Assembly (NCBI GenBank): GCA_963743975.1
Contig: CAVURS010000004.1
Coordinates: forward strand, 411,931 to 475,930
Direction of reading: 5' to 3'
DNA: 64,000 nucleotides
Source of the DNA: an uncultured Actinomycetota bacterium
GTDB lineage: Bacteria; Actinomycetota; Actinomycetes; Actinomycetales; CAVURS01
Under the pieces are notes generated by a model. It ran no database searches and was not told the DNA's origin. It saw only the letters and a list, made by a program, of their open reading frames with translations. Below are positions 2,335 through 50,650 of this stretch, piece by piece (within the stretch, counting starts at the first letter, position 1; the number at the start of each line of letters is the position of its first letter). Made by a program: the position numbers and the translations under genes.

Positions 2335-3402
2335 TCAACGGATCAGAGGAGGCGGTGCCGTCGAGCCCCGCACCACGAGTGTGCCGCGCAACCGGTGATG
2401 GCTCGGCCGCCGCTCCCGGTCGTGGATGCGGCGAAGGAGAAGATCTGAGGCCTTGGCACCGATCGCGTGCACCGGCTGCCGGACGACCGACAGGGACGGG
2501 GCGACCACCTCCGCCCACTCGGCATCGTCGAAGCCGACCAGGGATACGTCGTCCGGGCAGCGCAGCCCGAGGGAGCGCAGCCCGAGGATCGCTCCCAGGG
2601 CGAGGACGCTGTCGAACGCCACGATGGCGGTCGGCGGCTCCGGTAGCGACATGAGCTCGCGGACTGACGCCGTCGCGTCGTCGCGGTGGAACCCTCCGGC
2701 CGTCAGGTACTCCGGCCGCGGGGCGAGCCCGGCCTCGAGCAGCGCGTCGCGGTAGCCGGCAGCGCGCAGCCCCAGCGTGGTCAGGGGCAGCTTCTCGATG
2801 CCTGTCAGATCCCGCTCCCGCAACGCCTCCTGCGTCCCGGGGGCGCCACCGGTCACGATGCCGATCCGCCGGTGTCCCAGACCGATCAGGTGCGAGGTCG
2901 CCTCGTGGGCCGCTCGCCGGTTGTCCAGTCCGACGGTGTCGACCCGGAGACCGGGAGCGGGCCGGTCGATCAGCACGACCGGTATCCGGGACTCGACGAA
3001 CGAGCGCAGCTGCGTGGCGTCACCGCTCTCGACCGGGCAGAGGATGAGGCCCTCGACGCGGCGTTCCAGCAGGGCGGTCACTGCCGTGCGCTCCTGAGCC
3101 GGGTCCTCGTCGGTGTTCGCGAGGAGGACGTCGAAGCCGTGGCCCCGCGCGGTGTCGCTGATGCCGCGGAGCACGCCGTAGAAGAACGGGTTCTCCATCT
3201 CGGCGATGACCGCGCCGATCGTGTGGGTCTGGCCGGTGATCATGCTGCGGGCCAGACCGTTGGGCCGGTAGCCGATCTCGGTCGCGGCGTCCATGACGCG
3301 TTGCAGCGTGAGCGGGCTGACCGAGCCGTATCCGCCGAGGGCCCGGGCGGCCGTCGCTGTGGACACTCCGGCCAGCGCGGCCACGTCGAGCACCGTCGCC
3401 AT
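2335..3402 (-). CDS. LacI family transcriptional regulator
   Basis: ORF 2335..3423. The N-terminal HTH is MATVLDVAALAGVSTATAARAL, followed by a periplasmic-binding-fold core (IGAVIAEMENPFF, GLILCP, VGFDD). The ATG at 3402 gives the canonical LacI N-terminus; GTG 3423 is the alternative start. It is divergent from the SIS/kinase/ABC operon. Confidence 0.9.
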   Translation of the reverse strand: MATVLDVAALAGVSTATAARALGGYGSVSPLTLQRVMDAATEIGYRPNGLARSMITGQTHTIGAVIAEMENPFFYGVLRGISDTARGHGFDVLLANTDEDPAQERTAVTALLERRVEGLILCPVESGDATQLRSFVESRIPVVLIDRPAPGLRVDTVGLDNRRAAHEATSHLIGLGHRRIGIVTGGAPGTQEALRERDLTGIEKLPLTTLGLRAAGYRDALLEAGLAPRPEYLTAGGFHRDDATASVRELMSLPEPPTAIVAFDSVLALGAILGLRSLGLRCPDDVSLVGFDDAEWAEVVAPSLSVVRQPVHAIGAKASDLLLRRIHDRERRPSHHRLRGTLVVRGSTAPPPLIR

Positions 3403-6552: not shown

Positions 6553-7895
6553 GGAAGCTGTTACGAACGAGCACGGCGCTCGCCGCGGTTCTGGCCGCCG
6601 GGCTGACCATCGCCGCCTGTGGCACGCCCAACAGTGGTGGTTCGAACGCCAAGCAGCAGAGCCTGACGACGCCGAAGACCAAGTCGGGCACGCTGTCGAT
6701 CATCACGAAGTTCGCCGACCCGTCGACCGCGCCGTACTTCGTGTCCATGGTGAAGGCGTACGAGGCCGCCAACCCGGGCGTCAAGATCAACCTGCAGCAG
6801 GTGGGCGACCAGCCGTACAAGGACAAGATCACCGTCCTCACGACGTCGCACAACCTGCCGGACATCTACTTCTCGTGGGCGGGCGACTATGCCAACAAGT
6901 TCGTCCGTGGGGGATATGCGGCCGACCTGACGAGCGTGATCGGGCCGGACACGCCCTGGGGCAAGACCTTCTCCCAGGCAGCGTTGAAGGCGTTCACGCT
7001 GGACGGCAAGAACTACGCCGTGCCGATCGACCTCGACGCCAAATACATGGTGTACAGCAAGACCGCGTTCGCCAAGGCCCACATCGCGGCGCCACCCACC
7101 ACGTTCGCCGACCTGCTCAGCGACTGCGGCAAGCTCAAGTCCGCCGGCTACACCGCCATCGCGTTCGGCAACCAGTACGGCTGGCCGGCGATCCACTACC
7201 TGACCCAGCTCAACACCTTCGACGTGCCGGCGAGCACGCTGGCGCAGGACTACAACCCCTCGACCGGTGCGTTCACCGACCCCGGGTACGTCACGGCCCT
7301 CCAGCAGTTCCAGCAGATCGTGAAGCAGTGCGCGAACCCGTCCTCCGACGGTCTGGCCCACGAGGCGGCGCAGGCGAACCTCACCAGTGGCAAGGCGGCC
7401 ATGCAGTACATCGAGCTGGTCGAGTTCCCGCTCATGAAGGCCAAGGGTGTGCCGGCCGCCTTCGCGAACAACTGGAGCTTCTTCCGGCTGCCGCCGGCTG
7501 CAGGCTCCCCGGGTGACACGCAGGCGCTGACCGGTGCTCCGGACGGCTTCATGGTCAACAAGGACAGCAAGAACGCCGCGCTCGCGGTCGACTTCCTGAA
7601 GTTCATGACCACCGTGCCGAACGCCCAGCAGGAGACCAAGCAGATCGGCTACCTCAGCCCGGTGCTGGGCTCGTCGACGCCGCAGAACTCGTTCGCCCAG
7701 CAGACGGCGGCGCTCCAGGACCTGTCCAAGGTGAGCAGCTTCGCGATCTGGCTCGATACGGTCACCAACGCACTGGTGGCCAACGCGTACCTGTCCGGCG
7801 CCGAAGGCATCGCCAACGGGACGCAGACGCCGCAACAGGTCATGGCCGGCGTGCAGAAGGCAGCCGCCAAGGCCAAGCAGCAGGTCGGCGGCTGA
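6549..7895 (+). CDS. ABC transporter extracellular solute-binding lipoprotein (carbohydrate, family 1)
   Basis: 448 aa with a signal peptide plus lipobox (AAGLTIAAC GT). The length and composition are typical of actinobacterial sugar SBPs. Confidence 0.9.
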   Translation: MRKLLRTSTALAAVLAAGLTIAACGTPNSGGSNAKQQSLTTPKTKSGTLSIITKFADPSTAPYFVSMVKAYEAANPGVKINLQQVGDQPYKDKITVLTTSHNLPDIYFSWAGDYANKFVRGGYAADLTSVIGPDTPWGKTFSQAALKAFTLDGKNYAVPIDLDAKYMVYSKTAFAKAHIAAPPTTFADLLSDCGKLKSAGYTAIAFGNQYGWPAIHYLTQLNTFDVPASTLAQDYNPSTGAFTDPGYVTALQQFQQIVKQCANPSSDGLAHEAAQANLTSGKAAMQYIELVEFPLMKAKGVPAAFANNWSFFRLPPAAGSPGDTQALTGAPDGFMVNKDSKNAALAVDFLKFMTTVPNAQQETKQIGYLSPVLGSSTPQNSFAQQTAALQDLSKVSSFAIWLDTVTNALVANAYLSGAEGIANGTQTPQQVMAGVQKAAAKAKQQVGG

Positions 7896-14248: not shown

Positions 14249-14325
<77 letters not shown>

Positions 14326-18383: not shown

Positions 18384-18746
18384 ATGTCTGTTGAGACGCG
18401 TGCGCCCGAGGGTGCACGAGTGAGTGGATTCGGTCCGGACTGGGCGAGCCGGGGGGCTTGCCGGACAGCTGACCCGGACGCGCTGTTCGTCCAGGGAGCG
18501 GAGCAGAACCGGGCCAAGCAGGTGTGCATGTCCTGCGTCGTGCGCACCGAGTGCCTGGCCGACGCCCTGGACAACGAGGTCGAGTTCGGCGTCTGGGGTG
18601 GCATGACCGAGCGCGAGCGCCGGGCCCTGCTCAAGCGCCGGCCGAACGTGAAGTCCTGGCGCCGGCTGCTCGAGGCCGCCCGCGCCGAGCACGAGCGCAG
18701 CCTGGCCACGACGGCCCCGGCTGAGCTCGTCGCCAACGCCGGCTAG
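18384..18746 (+). CDS. WhiB family transcriptional regulator (Fe-S, redox-sensing)
   Basis: 120 aa. Four Cys in the WhiB pattern (C..x..[10 protein letters not shown]), the GVWGG turn and a basic C-terminus. It occupies the whiB4-like position between the PBP and the ArsA-like ATPases. Confidence 0.9.
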
Positions 18747-19893
18747 CTAGCGCCCGAGGTCGCTGCCGACGGCGCGCAGCCCCTCGAGGTCGTGCACGTC
18801 GCCGTCGCGGGCCCGCACCCGCACCGACGGCACCCCCGGGTGCGCGCGGGCGAACCGCGCCGCCAGATCCTGCTCCCGGGTCGCCAGACTGACCCGCTGG
18901 GCGTGCAGCCGCAGCAGCCGCGCGGTCAGGTCGTGGCCACCCAGCTCGTCCAGCGTCTCGGCGCCCGCGAGGCTGCGCTCGGCCGACAGCGTGGACGGCC
19001 CGGCGTCGTGCACCCGGTTCAGGACGAGCCCCGCGAGGGGCATCCGCTCCTGCGCCAGCCGCTCCACGAAGTACGACGCCTCCCGCAGTGCGTCCCGCTC
19101 CGGTGCGGCGACCACCACGAACGACGTCCCCGGCGCCTTCAACAGCTCGTACGTCGCGTCGGCGCGCTCGCGGAACCCCCCGAACATCGTGTCCAGGGCG
19201 GCCACGAACTGCTGCACGTCGGTGAGCACCTGCGCGCCCAGGACCTTGGTGAGCGCTGCCGGTCACCGCGCCGACCCCCGCGCTCACGACCTTGAGGTAC
19301 GCCCGGCCGCCGGCTCGCGCGGGCGCGGCCAGGAGCTTGATCAGCCGCCCGTCCAGGAACGAGCCCAGCCGCTGCGGCGCGTCCAGGAAGTCCAGCGCCG
19401 AGCGCGACGGAGGGGTGTCGACGACGATCAGGTCCCAGTCCCCGCTGGCCTGCAGCTGCCCCAGCTTCTCCATCGCCATGTACTCCTGCGTGCCCGCGAA
19501 CGAGCTGGACAGCGCCTGGTAGAAGGGGTTGGCGAGGATCTGGGCCGCCTTGTCCGGCGTGCTGTGGGCCTCGACGATCTCGTCGAAGGTCCGCTTCATG
19601 TCCAGCATCATCGCGTCGAGCCGCCCGCCGCCCGCCCGGTCGACGCCCCTCACCTCGCGTGGGGTGTTGTCCAGCTGGTTCAGCCCCATGGACTGGGCCA
19701 GGCGGCGGGCCGGGTCGATGGTCAGCACGACGGCGACCCGCCCCTTCTCGGCCGCGCGCAGGGCCAGCGCGGCGGCGGTCGTCGTCTTGCCCACGCCGCC
19801 GGAGCCGCAGCAGACGACGATGCGGGTGGCCGGGTCGGTGATCACCCGGTCGAGGTCGAGAGCGACGTTCGATCCGGCACGGGTCGGGCTCAT
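18747..19893 (-). pseudogene. ArsA/Get3-like anion-transporting-type ATPase (Rv3680-like); one frame break near 19254
   Basis: The N-terminal part is in ORF 18631..19893 (deviant Walker [18 protein letters not shown]; DTPPS). The C-terminal part is ORF 18747..19229. The junction is read as ...GAVTGS / [16 protein letters not shown]. Confidence 0.85.
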
Positions 19894-20908
19894 GACATGC
19901 CCTGGTCGGCCAGCTGGTTCGCGAGCTCGTAGAGCGCCCCGAGGTCGATCCCGCCGGTCAGGGCGGGCAGCTGGTAGACCGGCCGCCCGGCGGCCCGGAC
20001 GCGGGTCAGCTCGCGCTTCTCCAGGGCGACCCGGGCGCCGTGCTCCGCGGCCTCGGCCAGCAGGCCGTCCACGACCGACTCCCGATCGGGCAGTCCGGCC
20101 GCGGCCAGCCCCTCGGCGACGGACGACCGGTCCAGCCGCCCGGCGGCTGCGGCGGTCAGCTCACGGGCCCGCAGCACCGGCTCGCGCACGGCGTTGACCA
20201 CGATCCCGCCCAGCGGCAGCTGGTGCTCGGCGAGCTCCTCGAGCGCGTCGAGGGTCTCCTGGACCGGCATCTCCTCCAGCAGGGTCACGAGGTGCACGAC
20301 GGTCTGGGGCGAGCGCAGCAGCCGGGTGATCGAGTCGGCCTGGTTCCGGATCGGCCCGACCCGGGCGAGCCCGGCCACCTCGGAGTTGACGTCGAGGAAG
20401 CGCACGATCCGCCCGGTCGGCGGCGCGTCCAGGACGACCGCGTCGTACACCGGCTGGTCGCTGGTGGCGCCCCGGCCACCGGACCGGGCGCCGGTCTTGC
20501 GCCGCACCGCCTCGTAGACCTTGCCGGTCATCAGCACGTCCCGCAGGCCAGGCGCGACGGTCGTCGCGAAGTCGACGACGCCGAACCGCTCCAGCACGTG
20601 CCGGCCCGCCCGAGCTTGTAGAACAGCTGGAGGTACTCCCACAGCGCGGCCTTGGCGTCGACGGCCAGCCCGAGCACCTCGCCGCCGCCGCGCCCGAGCG
20701 CGACCTTGCGCTCGACGTACGGCAGCGGCGGGACGTCGAACAGCTGGGCGATGCCCTGCCGCCCCTCGACCTCGGCCAGCAGCACCCGCCGCCCCTCGCT
20801 GGCCAGGGCCAGCGCGAGGGACGCGGCGACCGTGGTCTTGCCGGTGCCGCCCTTGCCGGTCACGATGTGGAGGCGCACGCCGTCCCAGTCACGATCACCG
20901 GCGGGCAT
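19890..20908 (-). pseudogene. ArsA/Get3-like ATPase (Rv3679-like); one frame break near 20604
   Basis: The N-terminal part is ORF 20531..20908 (IVTGKGGTGKTTVAASLA). The C-terminal part is ORF 19890..20642 (VVLDAPPTG). The junction is ...YKLGRAG / HVLERFGVVDF. Its stop overlaps the start of the downstream paralogue. Confidence 0.85.
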
Positions 20909-21004
20909 GCGGAAAGGCTAACGGCGGGACGCCGGGCTCAGCGCGGCGAGCGCCCGAGCACCCGGTCACCCGCTGTCCCTGGCCGGACGCCCCGGTCCGT
21001 CCTG

Positions 21005-21060
21005 CCTGTGGACAAGTCCTCGACTCCAGCCGCGACCCTGTGGACAGGGCCTGTGGAAAA
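21005..21060 (-). promoter_or_regulatory. Three copies of a DnaA-box-like motif (minus-strand reading TTGTCCACAGG, CTGTCCACAGGG, TTTTCCACAGG)
   Basis: Read directly on the + strand as CCTGTGGACAA 21005..21015, CCCTGTGGACAG 21036..21047 and CCTGTGGAAAA 21050..21060. They lie 97-150 bp upstream of the ArsA-like operon start (20908) and are oriented with that operon. Confidence 0.4.
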
Positions 21061-21108
21061 CCAGTGCCGTGCACGGCCGGCTGCTCGGGGCACGTTCCGC
21101 CCGACTCG

Positions 21109-21143
21109 CTCTGCTCTGCTCCCCCGTGGGGAGCAGAGCAGAG
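21109..21143 (-). terminator. Perfect 16-bp stem-loop downstream of the alpha/beta hydrolase gene
   Basis: CTCTGCTCTGCTCCCC cgt GGGGAGCAGAGCAGAG, 45 nt after the reconstructed stop at 21188. There is no U-tract, which is common in high-GC actinobacteria. Confidence 0.5.
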
Positions 21144-21187
21144 TCACTCGGCAGCGAGGTGGCGGGAGGCGCAGGCCGTTTGAACGA

Positions 21188-45609: not shown

Positions 45610-45863
45610 TCCGGGTCACCCGCGGTGCCCCACGGAGTGGTGGAGCGGCTCGCCGGGTGACAAGGTTTGCCAGGACGAGCGCTGGGGGAGAGACTTTCTT
45701 ATGCCGGCTCTACGGAGCCGTGCCCCGCTCCGGCTCCTCCCCCCCGAGCCGGAGCGACAGACGGCCCCCGTTGTCCCCCCGACGGGGGCCGTCGCTACGC
45801 GCGGGGGGCTCCGGCCGCCGCCGTCTTCGGGTGCCTTGTCCCCAACCGGGCGGGTTCGTCGCA

Positions 45864-45974: not shown

Positions 45975-47102
45975 ATGCCGTCGTACGCCGTCCCTCCCGC
46001 CCCCGGCCGGTGGCCGGACGCACCGCCGGCGACCCTCGTCCTCACCCGCGACGCGGCCCTGACCGAGGTGCTGCACCGGCTGGCCGCCGTCGCCGGTGCC
46101 GAGCTGGACGTCCGCGACGAGCCCCCGGCGCTGGGCCGGTGGGCGGCCCCCGGCCTGGTCATCGTCGGGGCCGACCTCGTGGGCGCGGTGGCCGCACGGC
46201 TGCCGCGCCGTTCGGGGGTCGTGGTCGTCGGGCGGCAGGCCCCGCCCCGGGACGGGGCCGAGGACCGGCCGGGCAGCGACCTCTGGCGAGCCGCGATCGA
46301 GCTGGGCGCGGAGCGGGTGACGTTCCTCCCGGACGACGAGGACCACGTCGTCGAGGCGCTCGCCGAGCCGGCCGACCGGCGGCACCGGGCGGCCGTGGTG
46401 GCGGTCGTCGGCGGCAGTGGCGGTGCGGGAGCCTCCGTCCTGGCCACCGCGCTCGCCGTGGGCGCGGCCCGGCGCGGCCGCACCCTGCTCGCCGACCTGG
46501 ACCCGCTCGGCGGCGGCCTGGACCTCCTCGTGGGCGGCGAGCACCTGCCGGGGCTGCGCTGGCCGGAGCTGTCCGGCGCTCGCGGCCGCCTCGGAGGCGA
46601 CGTCCTGCGCGACGCGCTGCCCTGCCTGGACGGCCTGTCCGTGCTGTCGTGGGGCCGCGACCAGCCGCAGGCGGTGCCGGCCGAGGCGGCGGCCGCGGTG
46701 GCCGATGCGGCGCGCCGCGGGTTCGACGTGGTCGTCCTGGACCTGCCCCGGGCCGTCGAGCAGGTCGCTCCGGCCTGGCTCGGCAGCATCACGCTGGGGC
46801 TGCTCGTCGCACGGCCCACGGTGCGCTCGATCTGCGCCGCGGCCCGGGTGCTGCCCGAGCTCGACCGGTCGGCGCCGGAGGTGCGCCTGGTCGTCCGGAC
46901 CGATGGCGGTCACGGGGTGCCGGCCGACTCCGTCGCGGACACGTTGGGCCTGCCGCTGCTCGGGGAGCTCCGGCCCGAACCCGGCCTGCCGGCGGCGCTC
47001 GACCGCGGCGAGCCGCCGGGGCTGAGAGGCCGCTCTCCGCTCACCCGGCTGAGCGAACGGCTGCTGGACGACCTGGCCCGCGCCCACGCCGCCGCGGCAT
47101 GA
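45975..47102 (+). CDS. CpaE/Ssd-like ParA-family protein of the Tad locus (septum site-determining protein-like)
   Basis: Inner ATG 45975 of ORF 45657..47102. It has a degenerate P-loop (VVAVVGGSGGAGASVLATALA) and DLDPLGGGLDLL, which is typical of actinobacterial helicase/secretion-neighbourhood CpaE-like proteins. Confidence 0.8.
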   Translation: MPSYAVPPAPGRWPDAPPATLVLTRDAALTEVLHRLAAVAGAELDVRDEPPALGRWAAPGLVIVGADLVGAVAARLPRRSGVVVVGRQAPPRDGAEDRPGSDLWRAAIELGAERVTFLPDDEDHVVEALAEPADRRHRAAVVAVVGGSGGAGASVLATALAVGAARRGRTLLADLDPLGGGLDLLVGGEHLPGLRWPELSGARGRLGGDVLRDALPCLDGLSVLSWGRDQPQAVPAEAAAAVADAARRGFDVVVLDLPRAVEQVAPAWLGSITLGLLVARPTVRSICAAARVLPELDRSAPEVRLVVRTDGGHGVPADSVADTLGLPLLGELRPEPGLPAALDRGEPPGLRGRSPLTRLSERLLDDLARAHAAAA

Positions 47103-48352
47103 GGACCGGCGCTGCCGCCACCGTCGAGGCGGGCGGGCTCGACCGGGAGGTTCTCGCCCGGATCCGCGACACGCTCGCGGACGACGTGGAGCGACCGACC
47201 CCCGCCCGGATCGCCGCCGCCGCACGCTCGGCCGGGGTGATGGTCGGCGGCCGGCGCCTGCTGGCCGTGGTGGACGCCGTGCAGGCCGAGCTCTCGGGCG
47301 CCGGGCCGCTGCAGCCGTTGATCGCCGACCCGGACGTCACCGACATCCTGGTCAACGGCGTGGACGGCGTCTGGGTCGACCGGGGGAGCGGCCTGCAGCG
47401 GGTCAGCCTCGATCTCGGTGATGCGTCCGACGTCCGGCGGCTGGCGGTGCGCCTCGCCGCCGTGGCCGGCCGGCGGCTGGACGACGCGTCCCCCTGGGTC
47501 GACGCCCGGCTGCCCGGCGGAGCGCGGCTGCACGCGGTGCTGCCCCCGGTCGTGCAGGGCGCGGCCCACGTCAGCCTGCGCATCCCGCGGCGTACGGCGC
47601 TGTCGCTGGGCGACCTGGTCCGGGCCGGCACCGTCGCCGAGGACTGGGCGCCGGTGCTGCACGCCGTGGTGGCCTCGCGTGTCGCGTACCTGGTGACCGG
47701 CGGCACCGGCGCCGGAAAGACCACGCTGCTGTCGGCGCTGCTCGCCCTGGTGCCCGCATCCGAGCGGCTGGTCGTGGTCGAGGACGCGGCCGAGCTGTTC
47801 GTCGACCATCCGCACCTGGTCCGGCTCGAGGGCCGGGCGGCCAACGTCGAGGGCAGCGGCCTGGTCGCCATGACCGACCTCGTCCGGCAGGCCCTGCGGA
47901 TGCGCCCGGACCGGCTGGTGGTCGGGGAGGTCCGTGGCGCCGAGGTCCGCGACCTGCTCGCGGCGCTGAACACCGGGCACGAAGGCGGCTGCGGCACCGT
48001 CCACGCCAACGCCGGCACGGACCTTCCGGCGCGCCTGGAGGCGCTGGGCGCCCTGGCCGGGATGGGCCGGGCGGCGGTGCAGGCCCAGGCCGGAAGTGCG
48101 ATCGAGGCGGTGATCCACGTCCGCCGGTCGGGGGCCTCGCGCCGGGTCACCGAGCTGTCCGCCGTGGTCGGGGGTCGGGCCGGCCTGCAGGTTCTTCCCG
48201 CGCTGGTCCGGACCGGTGAGCAGGAGACGGCGGTCGGGCCGGGCTGGCCGCAGCTGGCCGTCCGGCTGGGGTTGGGCAGCCGGGCCGCGCCGGACAGCCG
48301 GGCCGCGCTGGGGCCGCCGGCGGCGCGGCACGGCCGGGAGGATCCGCTGTGA
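47099..48352 (+). CDS. tadA: Tad secretion ATPase (TadA/CpaF family)
   Basis: ATG 47099 overlaps the upstream stop. Walker A: VTGGTGAGKTTLL. Walker B: RLVVVED. Also present: RMRPDRLVVGEVRG, NTGHEGGCGTVHAN. Confidence 0.9.
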   Translation: MRTGAAATVEAGGLDREVLARIRDTLADDVERPTPARIAAAARSAGVMVGGRRLLAVVDAVQAELSGAGPLQPLIADPDVTDILVNGVDGVWVDRGSGLQRVSLDLGDASDVRRLAVRLAAVAGRRLDDASPWVDARLPGGARLHAVLPPVVQGAAHVSLRIPRRTALSLGDLVRAGTVAEDWAPVLHAVVASRVAYLVTGGTGAGKTTLLSALLALVPASERLVVVEDAAELFVDHPHLVRLEGRAANVEGSGLVAMTDLVRQALRMRPDRLVVGEVRGAEVRDLLAALNTGHEGGCGTVHANAGTDLPARLEALGALAGMGRAAVQAQAGSAIEAVIHVRRSGASRRVTELSAVVGGRAGLQVLPALVRTGEQETAVGPGWPQLAVRLGLGSRAAPDSRAALGPPAARHGREDPL

Positions 48353-49221
48353 CCGCGGTGATCCCGCTGTCCGGCCCTCCCGCGCTCCCCGTCCTGGCAG
48401 CGGCCCTGGGTGGGGCCGCCGTCCTGGTCTGGCCGGTCCGGCCGTCGGCCACCGCCCGCCTGGCGCGGCGGGTGGGGAGTCCTGTCGACCGCGCAGACCG
48501 CGCAGCCCCCCGACCGGCGCTGCTGCGCCACCTGGCCGCGCTCGTACCGCCGCGGCCGCCCGCACCGGGTCAGGTGGACCGGGCCGCGATCGCGCTCCTG
48601 GAGGCCCTGGCCGCTGCCCTGCGGGCCGGGCTGTCCCCGGCTCAGGCGCTGCACCACGTCGCCGCTCTGGGGGACTTCGGCGATCCCGCCGCTGCGGGCG
48701 CGGACGGCGCAGCCTCGGGTGGGCCGGCCGGTCCGGCGCTCCGTCGTCGGATCGGGCGGTGGCGCCGTGCCCGGAGCCGGCCCGACGAGATGGCGCTCCT
48801 CGCGGCGCGCCTGGCCGGGCACGCGTCGACGGGCGCGCGGCTGGAGCCGGTGCTGCGGGCGGAGGCCGAGCGGCTGGCGAGCCCGGCCCTGCTCGCGCTC
48901 GCCGCCGGGTGGGGGATGAGCGAGCGGTTCGGCGCACCGGTGGTGGACGTTCTGGACGGCCTGGTCGGCGCCCGCAGGGACGCCGCGCGGACCGCCGCCG
49001 CGGTGGAGACCGCCCTGTCCGCTCCCCGGGCCACCGCGTCGCTGCTGGCCGCCCTGCCGTTCGGTGGAGTGGTGCTCGGCGAGGTGGTCGGGGTCAGTCC
49101 GCTGGCCACTCTCTTCGGCACGTCGTTCGGCCGGGTCGACCTCGCCGCCGGCCTGCTCGCGACCTGGGGCGGCCGGGTCTGGATGCGCCGCCTCGTCCGC
49201 GCGGTGTCCTCGACGCCGTGA
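48349..49221 (+). CDS. tadB: Type II secretion system F family membrane protein (TadB-like)
   Basis: 290-aa ORF overlapping neighbours at both ends. It has an N-terminal TM, a T2SS-F-like region (LEALAAALRAGLSPAQAL) and C-terminal TM helices. Confidence 0.7.
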   Translation: MTAVIPLSGPPALPVLAAALGGAAVLVWPVRPSATARLARRVGSPVDRADRAAPRPALLRHLAALVPPRPPAPGQVDRAAIALLEALAAALRAGLSPAQALHHVAALGDFGDPAAAGADGAASGGPAGPALRRRIGRWRRARSRPDEMALLAARLAGHASTGARLEPVLRAEAERLASPALLALAAGWGMSERFGAPVVDVLDGLVGARRDAARTAAAVETALSAPRATASLLAALPFGGVVLGEVVGVSPLATLFGTSFGRVDLAAGLLATWGGRVWMRRLVRAVSSTP

Positions 49222-49880
49222 GCCGGGCGTCGGTCGCACCGGCTGTGCTGGCCGCTGGCCTCGTGGCTGCGGCGTTCCTGGCCTGGCCGGTGCGGGCCGG
49301 CCGCTCCCGCCTGGCCCGCGTGCTCGGTGCCCAATCCCGCCCGCCCGGGGCCGGACCCCTCGACGTCGGCCGGCTCCGCGGCCTGGCGCTCGGCCGATGG
49401 CTGCCAGGGCGTGCCGGGTGGGACCGAGGAGAGCGTGCCGGCGGAGCCGAACCTGGTCCGGACCTGTTGATGGACCTGGTGGCCTGCGGCCTGCGCTCCG
49501 GGCTGTCGGTCGTCGACTCCCTGCAGTGTGCGGCTGCGGTCGGAGGTGACCCGTCGGGCTACGTGGCGGCGGTCGTCGCCCGGTTGCGGATCGGCCTGCC
49601 GGCCCAGCTCGCCTGGGAGCGGACGCCACCGCCACTGGTGCCGCTCGCGCGGGCGCTGGTGCTCGCCGAGCTGTCCGGTGCTCCGGGTGCGGCCGTCGTC
49701 GCCCGGGCCGCCACCGACGCCCGGGCCCTGGCCCGGGAACGGCTCGAGCAGTCGGCCGCCCGGCTGGGTGTGCGCCTGGTGCTCCCGCTCGGGCTCGCCG
49801 TGCTGCCGGGCTTCGTCCTGCTGGCCGTCGTGCCGATCGTGCTGGGGCTCGCCTCGTCCGTCCTGGCCCAGAGCGGCTGA
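49218..49880 (+). CDS. tadC: Type II secretion system F family membrane protein (TadC-like)
   Basis: GTG 49218 overlaps the tadB stop. Segments: LMDLVACGLRSGLSVVDSL, GAPGAAVVARAATDARA. It has C-terminal TM helices. Confidence 0.7.
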   Translation: MSRASVAPAVLAAGLVAAAFLAWPVRAGRSRLARVLGAQSRPPGAGPLDVGRLRGLALGRWLPGRAGWDRGERAGGAEPGPDLLMDLVACGLRSGLSVVDSLQCAAAVGGDPSGYVAAVVARLRIGLPAQLAWERTPPPLVPLARALVLAELSGAPGAAVVARAATDARALARERLEQSAARLGVRLVLPLGLAVLPGFVLLAVVPIVLGLASSVLAQSG

Positions 49881-49911: not shown

Positions 49912-49950
49912 GTGTCCACAGGGCCGGCCTCACGTCCCGGCATCCACAGG
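49912..49950 (+). promoter_or_regulatory. Two copies of the TCCACAGG motif (GTGTCCACAGGG and GCATCCACAGG) upstream of the flp-like pilin gene
   Basis: Read directly at 49912..49923 and 49940..49950, with cores 28 bp apart. They lie 86-125 bp upstream of ATG 50037 in the same orientation as the gene. Confidence 0.4.
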
Positions 49951-50036
49951 CTGCGATCCGGCGGCTGCCGTCATCGGTCGGCAGTGGGACGTTCGGGACA
50001 CCGATTCCCTTGTCTCGCAACGACTCTAGGAGCCCC

Positions 50037-50243
50037 ATGTTCGTCTACCTCCTTGACCGCCTACGCCTTCGCTCCCTTCAGCGGGAGGACCGGAGGGACG
50101 ACAGCGGGATGACGACCGCGGAGTACGCGATCGGCACGCTCGCCGCCTGCGGGTTCGCCGCTCTCCTGGTGACGATCCTGCGCAGCGGCACGGTGCAGGG
50201 CCTGCTGCTCGGCGTCATCCGCTCCGCGCTGGCCCTCGGCTGA
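50037..50243 (+). CDS. Flp-like pilin (DUF4244 family)
   Basis: Inner ATG 50037 preceded by AGGAG. The G/MTTAEYAIGTLAA processing-site-like motif is followed by a hydrophobic helix. 68 aa. Confidence 0.75.
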   Translation: MFVYLLDRLRLRSLQREDRRDDSGMTTAEYAIGTLAACGFAALLVTILRSGTVQGLLLGVIRSALALG

Positions 50244-50650
50244 TGAGCGCTGTCCCGTCGCACCTGCGCCGCCCGAAGAGGCGGGCGCGCGGCCGGGCCG
50301 CTGACGCCGGCACCGTCACGGCCGAGCTCGCCGTCGCGTTGCCGGGGGTCGTGCTGCTGGCCGTCCTGCTCGCCCTGACCGGGCAGGCGGTCATCGGACA
50401 GGTGCGGTGCACGGATGCGGCCCGGGCCGCGGCCCGGCTGGCGGCGCGGGGCGAGCCGGCTCCGCGGGTGCTCGCCGAGGCCCGCAGCCGAGCGCCCGCC
50501 GGCGCCCGGACCCAGGTCTCGGTGGCCGGCGACGAGGTGACGGTCGACGTGTCGTCCCGCCTGGCCGTCCCGGCCGGCCGATGGCTGACGTGGGCCGCCT
50601 TGTCCCTGCACGGCAGGGCCACGGCCTCCGTCGAGAGCCCGGTCCCCTGA
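50243..50650 (+). CDS. TadE-like pseudopilin family protein
   Basis: 135 aa. GTVTAELAVALPGVVLLAVLL is a TadE-type N-terminus. The start overlaps the pilin stop. Confidence 0.75.
   Translation: MSAVPSHLRRPKRRARGRAADAGTVTAELAVALPGVVLLAVLLALTGQAVIGQVRCTDAARAAARLAARGEPAPRVLAEARSRAPAGARTQVSVAGDEVTVDVSSRLAVPAGRWLTWAALSLHGRATASVESPVP

Follow-up and report, generated by a model that had tools for sequence, protein, structure and literature searches.

Predicted DnaA boxes in front of Tad/Flp pilin, ssd and ArsA-like genes of an uncultured actinomycetotal bacterium

The question raised by this locus is why one short motif recurs, each time pointing along the downstream gene, in front of a Flp-type pilin gene (flp) and in front of an operon for ArsA/Get3-type ATPases. 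We analyzed a 64,000-nucleotide stretch (the window) of contig CAVURS010000004.1 from an uncultured Actinomycetota bacterium, and all coordinates are positions within it. An initial annotation, made from the sequence alone, had assigned the motif to an unnamed factor and to a regulon shared by the pilus (tad) and arsA-like genes. Judged by its sequence, the motif is the DnaA box of actinobacteria (high-GC Gram-positive bacteria), TTGTCCACA followed by a 3' G.

Motif copies in the window and their identity

The window contains seven copies of the motif at three sites:

Box A1, 21052..21060, minus strand: TTTTCCACA; distal box upstream of the ArsA-like operon
Box A2, 21039..21047, minus strand: CTGTCCACA; 13 bp from A1, with a 4-bp gap between the 9-mers, close to a double box
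Box A3, 21007..21015, minus strand: TTGTCCACA, identical to the DnaA-box consensus; 99 nt before the arsA1 ATG (20908)
Box C1, 45836..45844, plus strand: TTGTCCCCA; between the 6C RNA gene and ssd
Box C2, 45864..45872, plus strand: CCGTCCACA; 28 bp from C1, with the ssd ATG following after ~104 nt
Box B1, 49912..49923, plus strand: GTGTCCACAGGG, with the 9-mer GTGTCCACA at 49912-49920 and then GGG; distal box of the pair upstream of flp
Box B2, 49940..49950, plus strand: GCATCCACAGG, with the 9-mer GCATCCACA at 49940-49948 and then GG; proximal box, starting 28 bp after the start of B1

The initial annotation had described the B pair as two co-oriented boxes before the pilin gene, and its sequences and coordinates are correct; the pair lies 87-125 nt upstream of the ATG at 50037. 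The three copies that it had placed at the ArsA-like operon are likewise present and oriented with transcription (21005, 21037 and 21050, minus strand), and the 11-mer that it had matched to the reverse complement of 21036-21046 reads TGTCCACAGGG. It had overlooked the third, weaker pair, C1/C2, which also has a start-to-start distance of 28 bp and lies on the sense strand in the 6C-ssd interval.

The 8-mer TCCACAGG occurs 5 times in the window, compared to ~2 expected copies. This count was reached in 3/100 shuffles and is by itself a weak signal, and the modest excess is what could be said for the repeats being chance matches or relics of local duplication that have no function. However, all 5 copies fall into two tight clusters, at 21005/21037/21050 (minus strand) and 49915/49943 (plus strand), and the orientation of each cluster is that of the gene downstream (minus at arsA, plus at tad). 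Three same-strand neighbor pairs within 60 bp were observed, whereas ~0.0021 were expected; as an analytic estimate, the Poisson probability of this clustering is P ~1.5e-9.

The 9-mer TTGTCCACA is the consensus high-affinity DnaA box of both M. tuberculosis and S. coelicolor (PMC4285127, Table 1). Box A3 matches it at 9/9 positions, A1, A2, B1 and C1 at 8/9, C2 at 7/9 and B2 at 6/9 (7/9 when B2 is compared with TTATCCACA); the copies other than A3 deviate within the first three positions, at one, two or all of them. For comparison with functional origins of replication (oriC), we retrieved two Streptomyces origins (L161 and L162) via their DnaA proteins and used the dnaA-dnaN and rpmH-dnaA spacers. 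Among the 33 boxes in this oriC and dnaA-promoter DNA, 79% have a G directly 3', and their flanks resemble those of the window boxes. Each of these origins also contains, twice, co-oriented boxes that are 26 bp apart.

A 16-column profile trained solely on those 33 boxes ranked A1-A3, B1 and B2 as the five best of ~128,000 window positions, with scores of 18.5 bits for A3, 15.7 for A1, 15.7 for A2, 14.6 for B2 and 13.4 for B1; the 6C-ssd pair scored lower (C1, 10.1 bits; C2, 11.1 bits). As a second matrix we used the M. tuberculosis DnaA 9-mer matrix of Hicks et al., which is derived from biochemically defined DnaA sites (PMC7738170, S10). Among 127,984 positions, this matrix ranked A3 first, A2 second, C2 9th, A1 11th, B1 35th, C1 37th and B2 58th, so that A3 is the top position in the window with both matrices. 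At all three sites the boxes form clusters of two or three, an arrangement that would permit cooperative binding. Based on these comparisons, we consider it likely that DnaA binds the predicted boxes. The factor and regulon invoked by the initial annotation are unsupported as something new, because the motif is a textbook DnaA box and its flanks fit those of real oriC and dnaA-promoter boxes.

The sixth-best profile match in the window, GAGTGTCCACAGCGAC at 3353-3368 (minus strand), falls in the gene of a LacI-type regulator, where it encodes V-S-T-A of the helix-turn-helix. We took it to be a chance match, probably a coding coincidence.

Another DNA-binding protein might instead recognize GTCCACAGG, with the likeness to DnaA boxes being coincidental; candidates would be a tad-specific regulator or an MtrA- or PhoP-related response regulator of the OmpR type. 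The most conserved part of the motif is indeed TCCACAGG, whereas the 5' TT, which is important for DnaA, is variable in box 1. The direct repeats at a fixed distance of 27-29 bp are unlike the double box of E. coli DnaA, the MtrA site GTCACAGCG is superficially alike, and the mycobacterial DnaA maps discussed below do not include the locus. Yet the extended string, with its 3' G and GGCTG, is found again in oriC and the dnaA promoter, and matrices based only on DnaA sites single out these boxes among 128,000 positions. The variation among the copies, (T/C)(T/C)(G/A)TCC(A/C)CA, is also that seen among oriC boxes, and the MtrA motif fits only with an indel. We therefore regard a different protein as distinctly unlikely.

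Among specific candidates, MtrA was rejected on its site sequence: the boxes read GTCCACAGG, with an extra C that is invariant in every copy, in contrast to direct repeats of the GTCACAGCG type. The mycobacterial PhoP and MprA repeats, PafBC/RecA-NDp, Crp, the WhiA motif GACAC and ECF/sigma promoters were also considered; none fits without indels or explains the match to oriC boxes.

Conservation of the boxes at the 6C-ssd-tad locus

We retrieved 80 loci around tadA homologues, comprising ~65 Streptomyces species together with Angustibacter, Jiangella, Mobilicoccus, Leekyejoonella, Actinomadura, Streptacidiphilus and several metagenome-assembled genomes, and counted profile matches of ≥13 bits in the 68 loci that had full flanks. 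Plus-strand matches were confined to the region upstream of ssd (61/68 loci) and to tadC/flp (55/68), and none was found elsewhere on the plus strand of these loci. The opposite strand had few matches at the same places (2 loci upstream of ssd and 9 at tadC/flp). The flp boxes have their conserved partners in the boxes before ssd, in the same tad locus.

Outside Streptomyces, the boxes are found as co-oriented pairs, 27-29 bp apart, before ssd and/or flp. This spacing recurs in ten or more lineages (among them L001, L002, L007, L008, L037, L041, L049, L166 and L169), and the order 6C, boxes, ssd is also present in L001, L003, L007, L008, L013, L056 and L073. In the relative L166, whose TadA is 89% identical, GCCGTCCACAGG-N20-GCCGTCCACAGG precedes flp with a start-to-start distance of 28 bp, and L169, a closer relative identified by protein search, has three boxes. 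Where the flp side has changed, the ssd side persists: L167 and L002 have lost the flp-side boxes, and L168 has lost the whole flp-tadE part, so that its tadC is followed by a convergent glycosyl hydrolase gene, but all three retain the ssd-upstream box or boxes (one in L167).

In an alignment of the region upstream of flp from six lineages (mean identity 46%), TCCACAG in box 1 (7 positions) and TCC.CA in box 2 (5 positions) are invariant; apart from six isolated invariant columns, the boxes are the sole invariant runs. The initial annotation had staked its proposal on conservation of the boxes upstream of flp homologues, and this expectation is borne out, since the invariant columns of the alignment are essentially the two boxes and 55/68 loci have a match at tadC/flp. 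The comparison supports reading the boxes as cis-elements under selection, which relatives also keep in front of their flp homologues. Few non-coding signals of the 6C-ssd-tad locus are as well conserved across the range from Streptomyces to Kineosporiales, Jiangella and Mobilicoccus. Nor is the motif a generic repeat scattered through the genome, the alternative named in the initial annotation: the window has no further copies of TCCACAGG, and 80 arsA loci gave 22 profile matches in 338 kb, with a background in unrelated flanking DNA of ~0.065 profile matches per kb.

Two other conserved elements were seen at this locus. Directly before the flp start is a block, CTTG(T/C)C..GCAACGACT(C/T)T.GAGGAG (window 50005-50036; also in L166 and L167), which includes the Shine-Dalgarno sequence and is kept even in L167, where the boxes are missing; the block with GCAACGACT may hold a proximal promoter or an element of the 5' untranslated region. 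Many Streptomyces also have a further conserved element on the sense strand, GGTTTTCCACAA, before the 6C gene, about 345-410 bp (usually 360-380) upstream of the main ssd box (L010, L013, L017, L023, L030, L039, L047, L057, L072, L077, L078 and L080). In L013 it is ~115 nt before the Rfam 6C match, and it may represent a weak DnaA box or belong to the 6C promoter.

In Streptomyces, the second site is coding: GTTGTCCACAGGCTG corresponds to codons 5-9 of tadC (M-S-x-E-V-V-H-R-L-G). The site is the same string, TTGTCCACAGGCTGGGGACAA, that the Streptomyces dnaA promoter contains, and as in that promoter it often has an inverted partner box 16 nt downstream. Codon usage at this position is atypical. 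Where codon 5 encodes Val, it is GTT in 32/38 cases, compared to 2.0% of the Val codons in tadA from these genomes; where codon 8 encodes Arg, it is always AGG (37/37), compared to 6.4% in tadA. The only common variant of codon 8 is AGC (Ser), which alters the protein and retains GTCCACAG, and CGN was never seen. Because rare GTT and AGG are retained and the AGC variant keeps GTCCACAG, selection at the Streptomyces tadC box is, as judged from these codons, on nucleotides rather than on the peptide. The explanation that the Streptomyces copy merely encodes V-V-H-R-L was rejected on the same grounds. With boxes kept across orders while their surroundings diverged, and with rare codons retained, the comparative data already refute chance or duplication as the origin of the repeats, and we give that explanation practically no weight.

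The inverted partner in Streptomyces corresponds to CTGGGG(A/T) after the box, in tadC codons 9-11 (e.g., L022 6055-6065). In the mRNA, this sequence forms a G-run of the kind that the 6C small RNA (sRNA) reportedly targets near start codons, and a cis-encoded 6C-tadC interaction is conceivable.

The strand bias is also what an element acting in the transcript would predict. In that case, sense-strand UUGUCCACAGG would be read as RNA by DnaA or by another RNA-binding factor or sRNA, leading to attenuation or an effect on translation. Sense-strand exclusivity (61 vs. 2 loci, and 55 vs. 9) agrees with this idea, as does the location of the Streptomyces element within the tadC mRNA; in addition, PMC10950094 mentions binding of DnaA to an RNA box (rDnaA box) with a role in termination. 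On the other hand, no conserved secondary structure was detected around the boxes (z = -1.0 on the flp side and z = +1.6 on the ssd side), and the inverted partner boxes in Streptomyces are a DNA-level feature in common with the dnaA promoter. Action in the transcript is thus very unlikely, and the preferred reading remains binding of DnaA to DNA.

The ArsA-like operon and the gene neighborhood

The boxes at the ArsA-like operon have a different history. They lie within a segment of ~280-370 bp that the window shares with its closest relative alone (L163, with ArsA1 93% identical). At the upstream end of this segment is a hairpin:

Perfect hairpin with a 16-bp stem, 21105..21150, minus strand: z = -6.9 at a folding energy of -43.1 kcal/mol; follows the alpha/beta-hydrolase gene and ends ~45 nt before A1

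This hairpin is probably the terminator of the alpha/beta-hydrolase gene. The long spacer of L163 contains the same 16-bp-stem hairpin (625-659) and two boxes (TTATCCACAG and TTGTCCACAGG), and the sequence between the boxes is divergent. The proximal L163 box is a perfect TTGTCCACA (CGTTGTCCACAGGG) that lies roughly as far from the start codon as A3 does. The segment is absent from L164 (ArsA1 89% identical), L165 (82%) and Angustibacter aerolatus (L170), in which the hydrolase stop codon is 10-50 bp from arsA1. Because only the window and L163 have the hairpin-plus-boxes segment and these three other relatives lack it, the comparison identifies it as a recent insertion in this lineage. The inserted boxes point along the downstream gene although their strand is opposite to that of the tad boxes. 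Upstream of 80 metagenome arsA1 homologues, we found no enrichment of boxes (0.069 matches per kb, compared to a background of 0.065).

The interpretation given in the initial annotation is supported in part. One factor very probably recognizes both the flp and the arsA promoter regions; however, the tad-arsA link is not a conserved regulon, with arsA-side boxes being present only in the window and L163.

Two further ideas about the hairpin were rejected. It is not a dispersed repeat, as it is present solely at this locus and in L163. A "hairpin then boxes" layout common to the three sites was also discarded: only the arsA hairpin is significant (z values as given above), and L166 has boxes without a hairpin.

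Immediately before arsA1 is a possible core-promoter element:

TAGCCT, a hexamer resembling a -10 element, 20915..20920, minus strand: separated by 6 nt from the arsA1 ATG; a Shine-Dalgarno sequence is absent

The arrangement GGTTAGCCT-N6-ATG is kept in L163 and L164, and in L165 it occurs as CTAGCCT. Because a Shine-Dalgarno sequence is lacking, the arsA1 mRNA is probably leaderless, with TAGCCT as its putative -10 element.

The window is from an actinobacterium with 73.7% G+C, and its gene order is that of M. tuberculosis Rv3654c-Rv3682. The minus strand carries genes for a class A penicillin-binding protein, a WhiB4/WblA-like protein, the two ArsA/Get3-type ATPases, the alpha/beta hydrolase and a MerR-type protein; on the plus strand, 30 kb beyond, are the 6C RNA gene, ssd, tadA, tadB, tadC, flp and tadE. 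The features next to the boxes are as follows:

18631..20908, minus strand: arsA1 (20908-19890) and arsA2 (19893 to ~18747); PF02374, three-frame translation
45724..45797, plus strand: 6C small RNA gene; Rfam RF01066, 55.9 bits (gathering score 47); the boxes start 39 nt after its 3' end
45976..47102, plus strand: ssd/CpaE-like gene (Rv3660c type), first gene of the tad locus; open reading frame (ORF) and map of G+C at third codon positions
47099..48352, plus strand: tadA/cpaF ATPase gene; PF00437 T2SSE, E = 4e-51; 100% identical to P0241
48349-49221 and about 49218-49880 (start approximate), plus strand: tadB and tadC; PF00482 T2SSF, ORF list
50037..50243, plus strand: Flp-type pilin gene (DUF4244), 68 aa; PF14029, E = 8e-24; Shine-Dalgarno sequence AGGAG before the start
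50243..50650, plus strand: TadE-like gene; PF07811, weak (21.5 bits, just under the curated cut-off of 22.9)

The gene calls of the initial annotation hold: the products include a DUF4244 Flp-type pilin, TadE, T2SSF and T2SSE proteins, two ArsA/Get3-type ATPases and a WhiB-type protein. The ssd assignment is supported by PF26563 (Rv3660c_N) in the neighboring gene calls of L166-L169. The distance from the end of tadC to box B1 is 32 nt. An exact-match look-up of the WhiB-type protein of the window returned no match. Based on TBLASTN alignment to homologues with 92-96% identity, each ArsA gene contains one frameshift (20600-20612 and 19237-19256). These are more likely assembly indels than signs of pseudogenes, because the related contigs are metagenome assemblies in ENA and the gene calls of L166 and L169 also look fragmented. 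A tRNA gene is present at 14252-14325 (minus strand; Rfam, 65.8 bits).

Possible roles of the boxes and comparison with known systems

Each site in the window is located just behind an upstream unit (6C; tadB/tadC; the hydrolase gene and its probable terminator hairpin) and about 90-100 nt before the next start codon. Because the boxes are all on the sense strand and lie behind the end of the preceding transcription unit, we propose that DnaA gates transcription. DnaA, which is both replication initiator and transcription factor, would bind all seven boxes (the flp pair, the arsA trio and the 6C-ssd pair), and two DnaA molecules would bind each pair cooperatively. DnaA occupancy would gate transcription that enters or starts at ssd and the pilin genes, with DnaA acting as an orientation-dependent block or repressor, as for the asnC terminator and dnaA box of E. 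coli. Expression of the Ssd/Tad module would thereby be tied to replication-initiation status, and the ArsA-like operon would have joined DnaA control recently, in this lineage, via the inserted segment. The effect of DnaA on transcription, and its sign, we infer from sequence arrangement: the strict use of the sense strand, the position behind a unit, the ~90-100 nt to the start codon and the Streptomyces site within the operon fit orientation-dependent gating. Taken as a whole, gating of transcription into ssd and the pilin genes by DnaA at the predicted boxes is our best explanation, and we hold it with moderate confidence.

Precedents for such regulation are available. According to PMC13438810 and PMC10950094, which cite Schaefer and Messer (1988, 1989), DnaA acts elsewhere as a repressor, as an activator and as an orientation-dependent block of elongating RNA polymerase. 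In mycobacteria, 6C reportedly represses dnaB (PMC6486639), and this finding, together with the striking conservation of the boxes, makes a replication-linked circuit plausible. Searches of the available literature found no paper linking DnaA boxes with 6C, ssd, tad or Rv3660c, and searches on the raw motif strings returned primers only.

Several observations weigh against gating by DnaA. By the 9-mer alone, B1 and B2 are only moderate boxes (ranks given above). The spacing of 27-29 bp has no characterized precedent: in E. coli, DnaA binding is almost entirely restricted to paired boxes, with a preferred gap of 2-3 bp (PMC11317965), and the nearest oriC analogue is 26 bp. The flp-side boxes have been lost in L167, in a 62-bp spacer (6761-6827), and in L002 without obvious loss of genes. 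Genome-wide mapping of mycobacterial DnaA by in vitro DNA affinity purification sequencing (IDAP-seq) and chromatin immunoprecipitation sequencing (ChIP-seq) identified sites upstream of dnaB, at oriC, at Rv3843c, at Rv0010c-11c and at rpmH-dnaA (PMC7738170, S8 and S9), and neither the tad/6C locus nor Rv3679 is among them; the box sites may be absent or weak in mycobacteria. Finally, a consensus promoter scan of the region placed no promoter or transcription start, and for this reason a roadblock and promoter-level control are not separable. Boxes 1 and 2 were themselves considered as -35 and -10 elements and rejected, as the start-to-start distance of 28 is wrong and the promoter scan was empty.

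The boxes might also bind DnaA and yet serve replication control, as small clusters that titrate or cycle DnaA in the manner of E. coli datA/DARS, S. coelicolor D78 and the DnaA-box clusters (DBCs) of B. subtilis. Their quality equals that of oriC boxes, and in both M. tuberculosis and S. coelicolor a few hundred kb separate the syntenic region from oriC; we counted both points in favor of this role. Clusters of DnaA boxes outside the origin are known, including in Streptomyces (PMC3479198). However, there are only one to three boxes per site, and a pure sink would not need the strict sense orientation that is seen even at the independently acquired minus-strand arsA site. Positions are also fixed at gene boundaries across families, and one site is kept in coding sequence despite its cost in rare codons. 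Titration is therefore unlikely, and gating of transcription by DnaA is the explanation that we retain.

A broader idea, which we put forward only tentatively and consider doubtful, is that a conserved actinobacterial module senses replication status. DnaA occupancy at the sense-strand boxes behind 6C and before the pilin genes would set transcription into ssd (a septum-site ATPase gene) and Tad/Flp, with feedback among DnaA, 6C and DnaB, and the ArsA pair would have been wired in by the box cassette. If true, this loop would link replication initiation, division-site choice and the pilus/DNA-uptake machinery. DnaA regulons are small and poorly mapped in Actinobacteria, and no more than five strong sites are known from mycobacteria. 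The boxes offer a testable link between replication initiation and the locus of Ssd, Tad/Flp pili and the dnaB-targeting 6C sRNA; synonymous changes in tadC could destroy the Streptomyces box without altering the protein.

Compared with datA/DARS, D78 and the B. subtilis DBCs, the window sites are alike in having high-affinity boxes outside oriC at conserved positions. They differ in having far fewer boxes, three at most where at least 4-5 would be expected of a titration cluster, and in an orientation that follows gene direction; no IHF-type site turned up in the window data, in which none was searched for. The MtrA sites GTCACAGCG are similar as short co-oriented repeats with CACAG that are also reported at oriC and the dnaA promoter (PMC4285127), but a fit requires a one-base deletion, and the window boxes do not form a 9-mer repeat with 11-bp phasing.

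The mycobacterial DnaA sites outside the origin (upstream of dnaB/Rv0057, Rv0010c-Rv0011c and Rv3843c; PMC7738170) are likewise intergenic, actinobacterial and next to replication or cell-cycle genes, and the Rv0010c-11c site also has two box-like sequences; none of them corresponds to the tad/6C locus or to Rv3679-80 homologues. In E. coli, DnaA regulation at dnaA, nrd, mioC, guaB and the asnC terminator with its dnaA box similarly involves boxes between transcription units, and the arsA site lies directly behind a probable terminator hairpin. The orientation dependence fits the reported existence of an "active orientation" of the DnaA/dnaA-box complex. The targets differ, being here a Tad/Flp pilus and ssd module and Get3/ArsA-type ATPases, as does the spacing, which is unlike the 2-3 bp double box.

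The closest resemblance is to the boxes of actinobacterial oriC and dnaA promoters. The window sites differ from oriC boxes in lying outside the origin, ~30-60 kb apart in one gene neighborhood, with one to three boxes each; in addition, all are sense-oriented, and the pairs are 27-29 bp apart rather than the 26 bp of co-oriented oriC pairs. They share with those boxes the 9-mer, its degeneracy (Y-Y-R-TCC-M-CA) and the G after it, and the head-to-head partner 16 nt downstream in Streptomyces dnaA promoters is found again in Streptomyces tadC.

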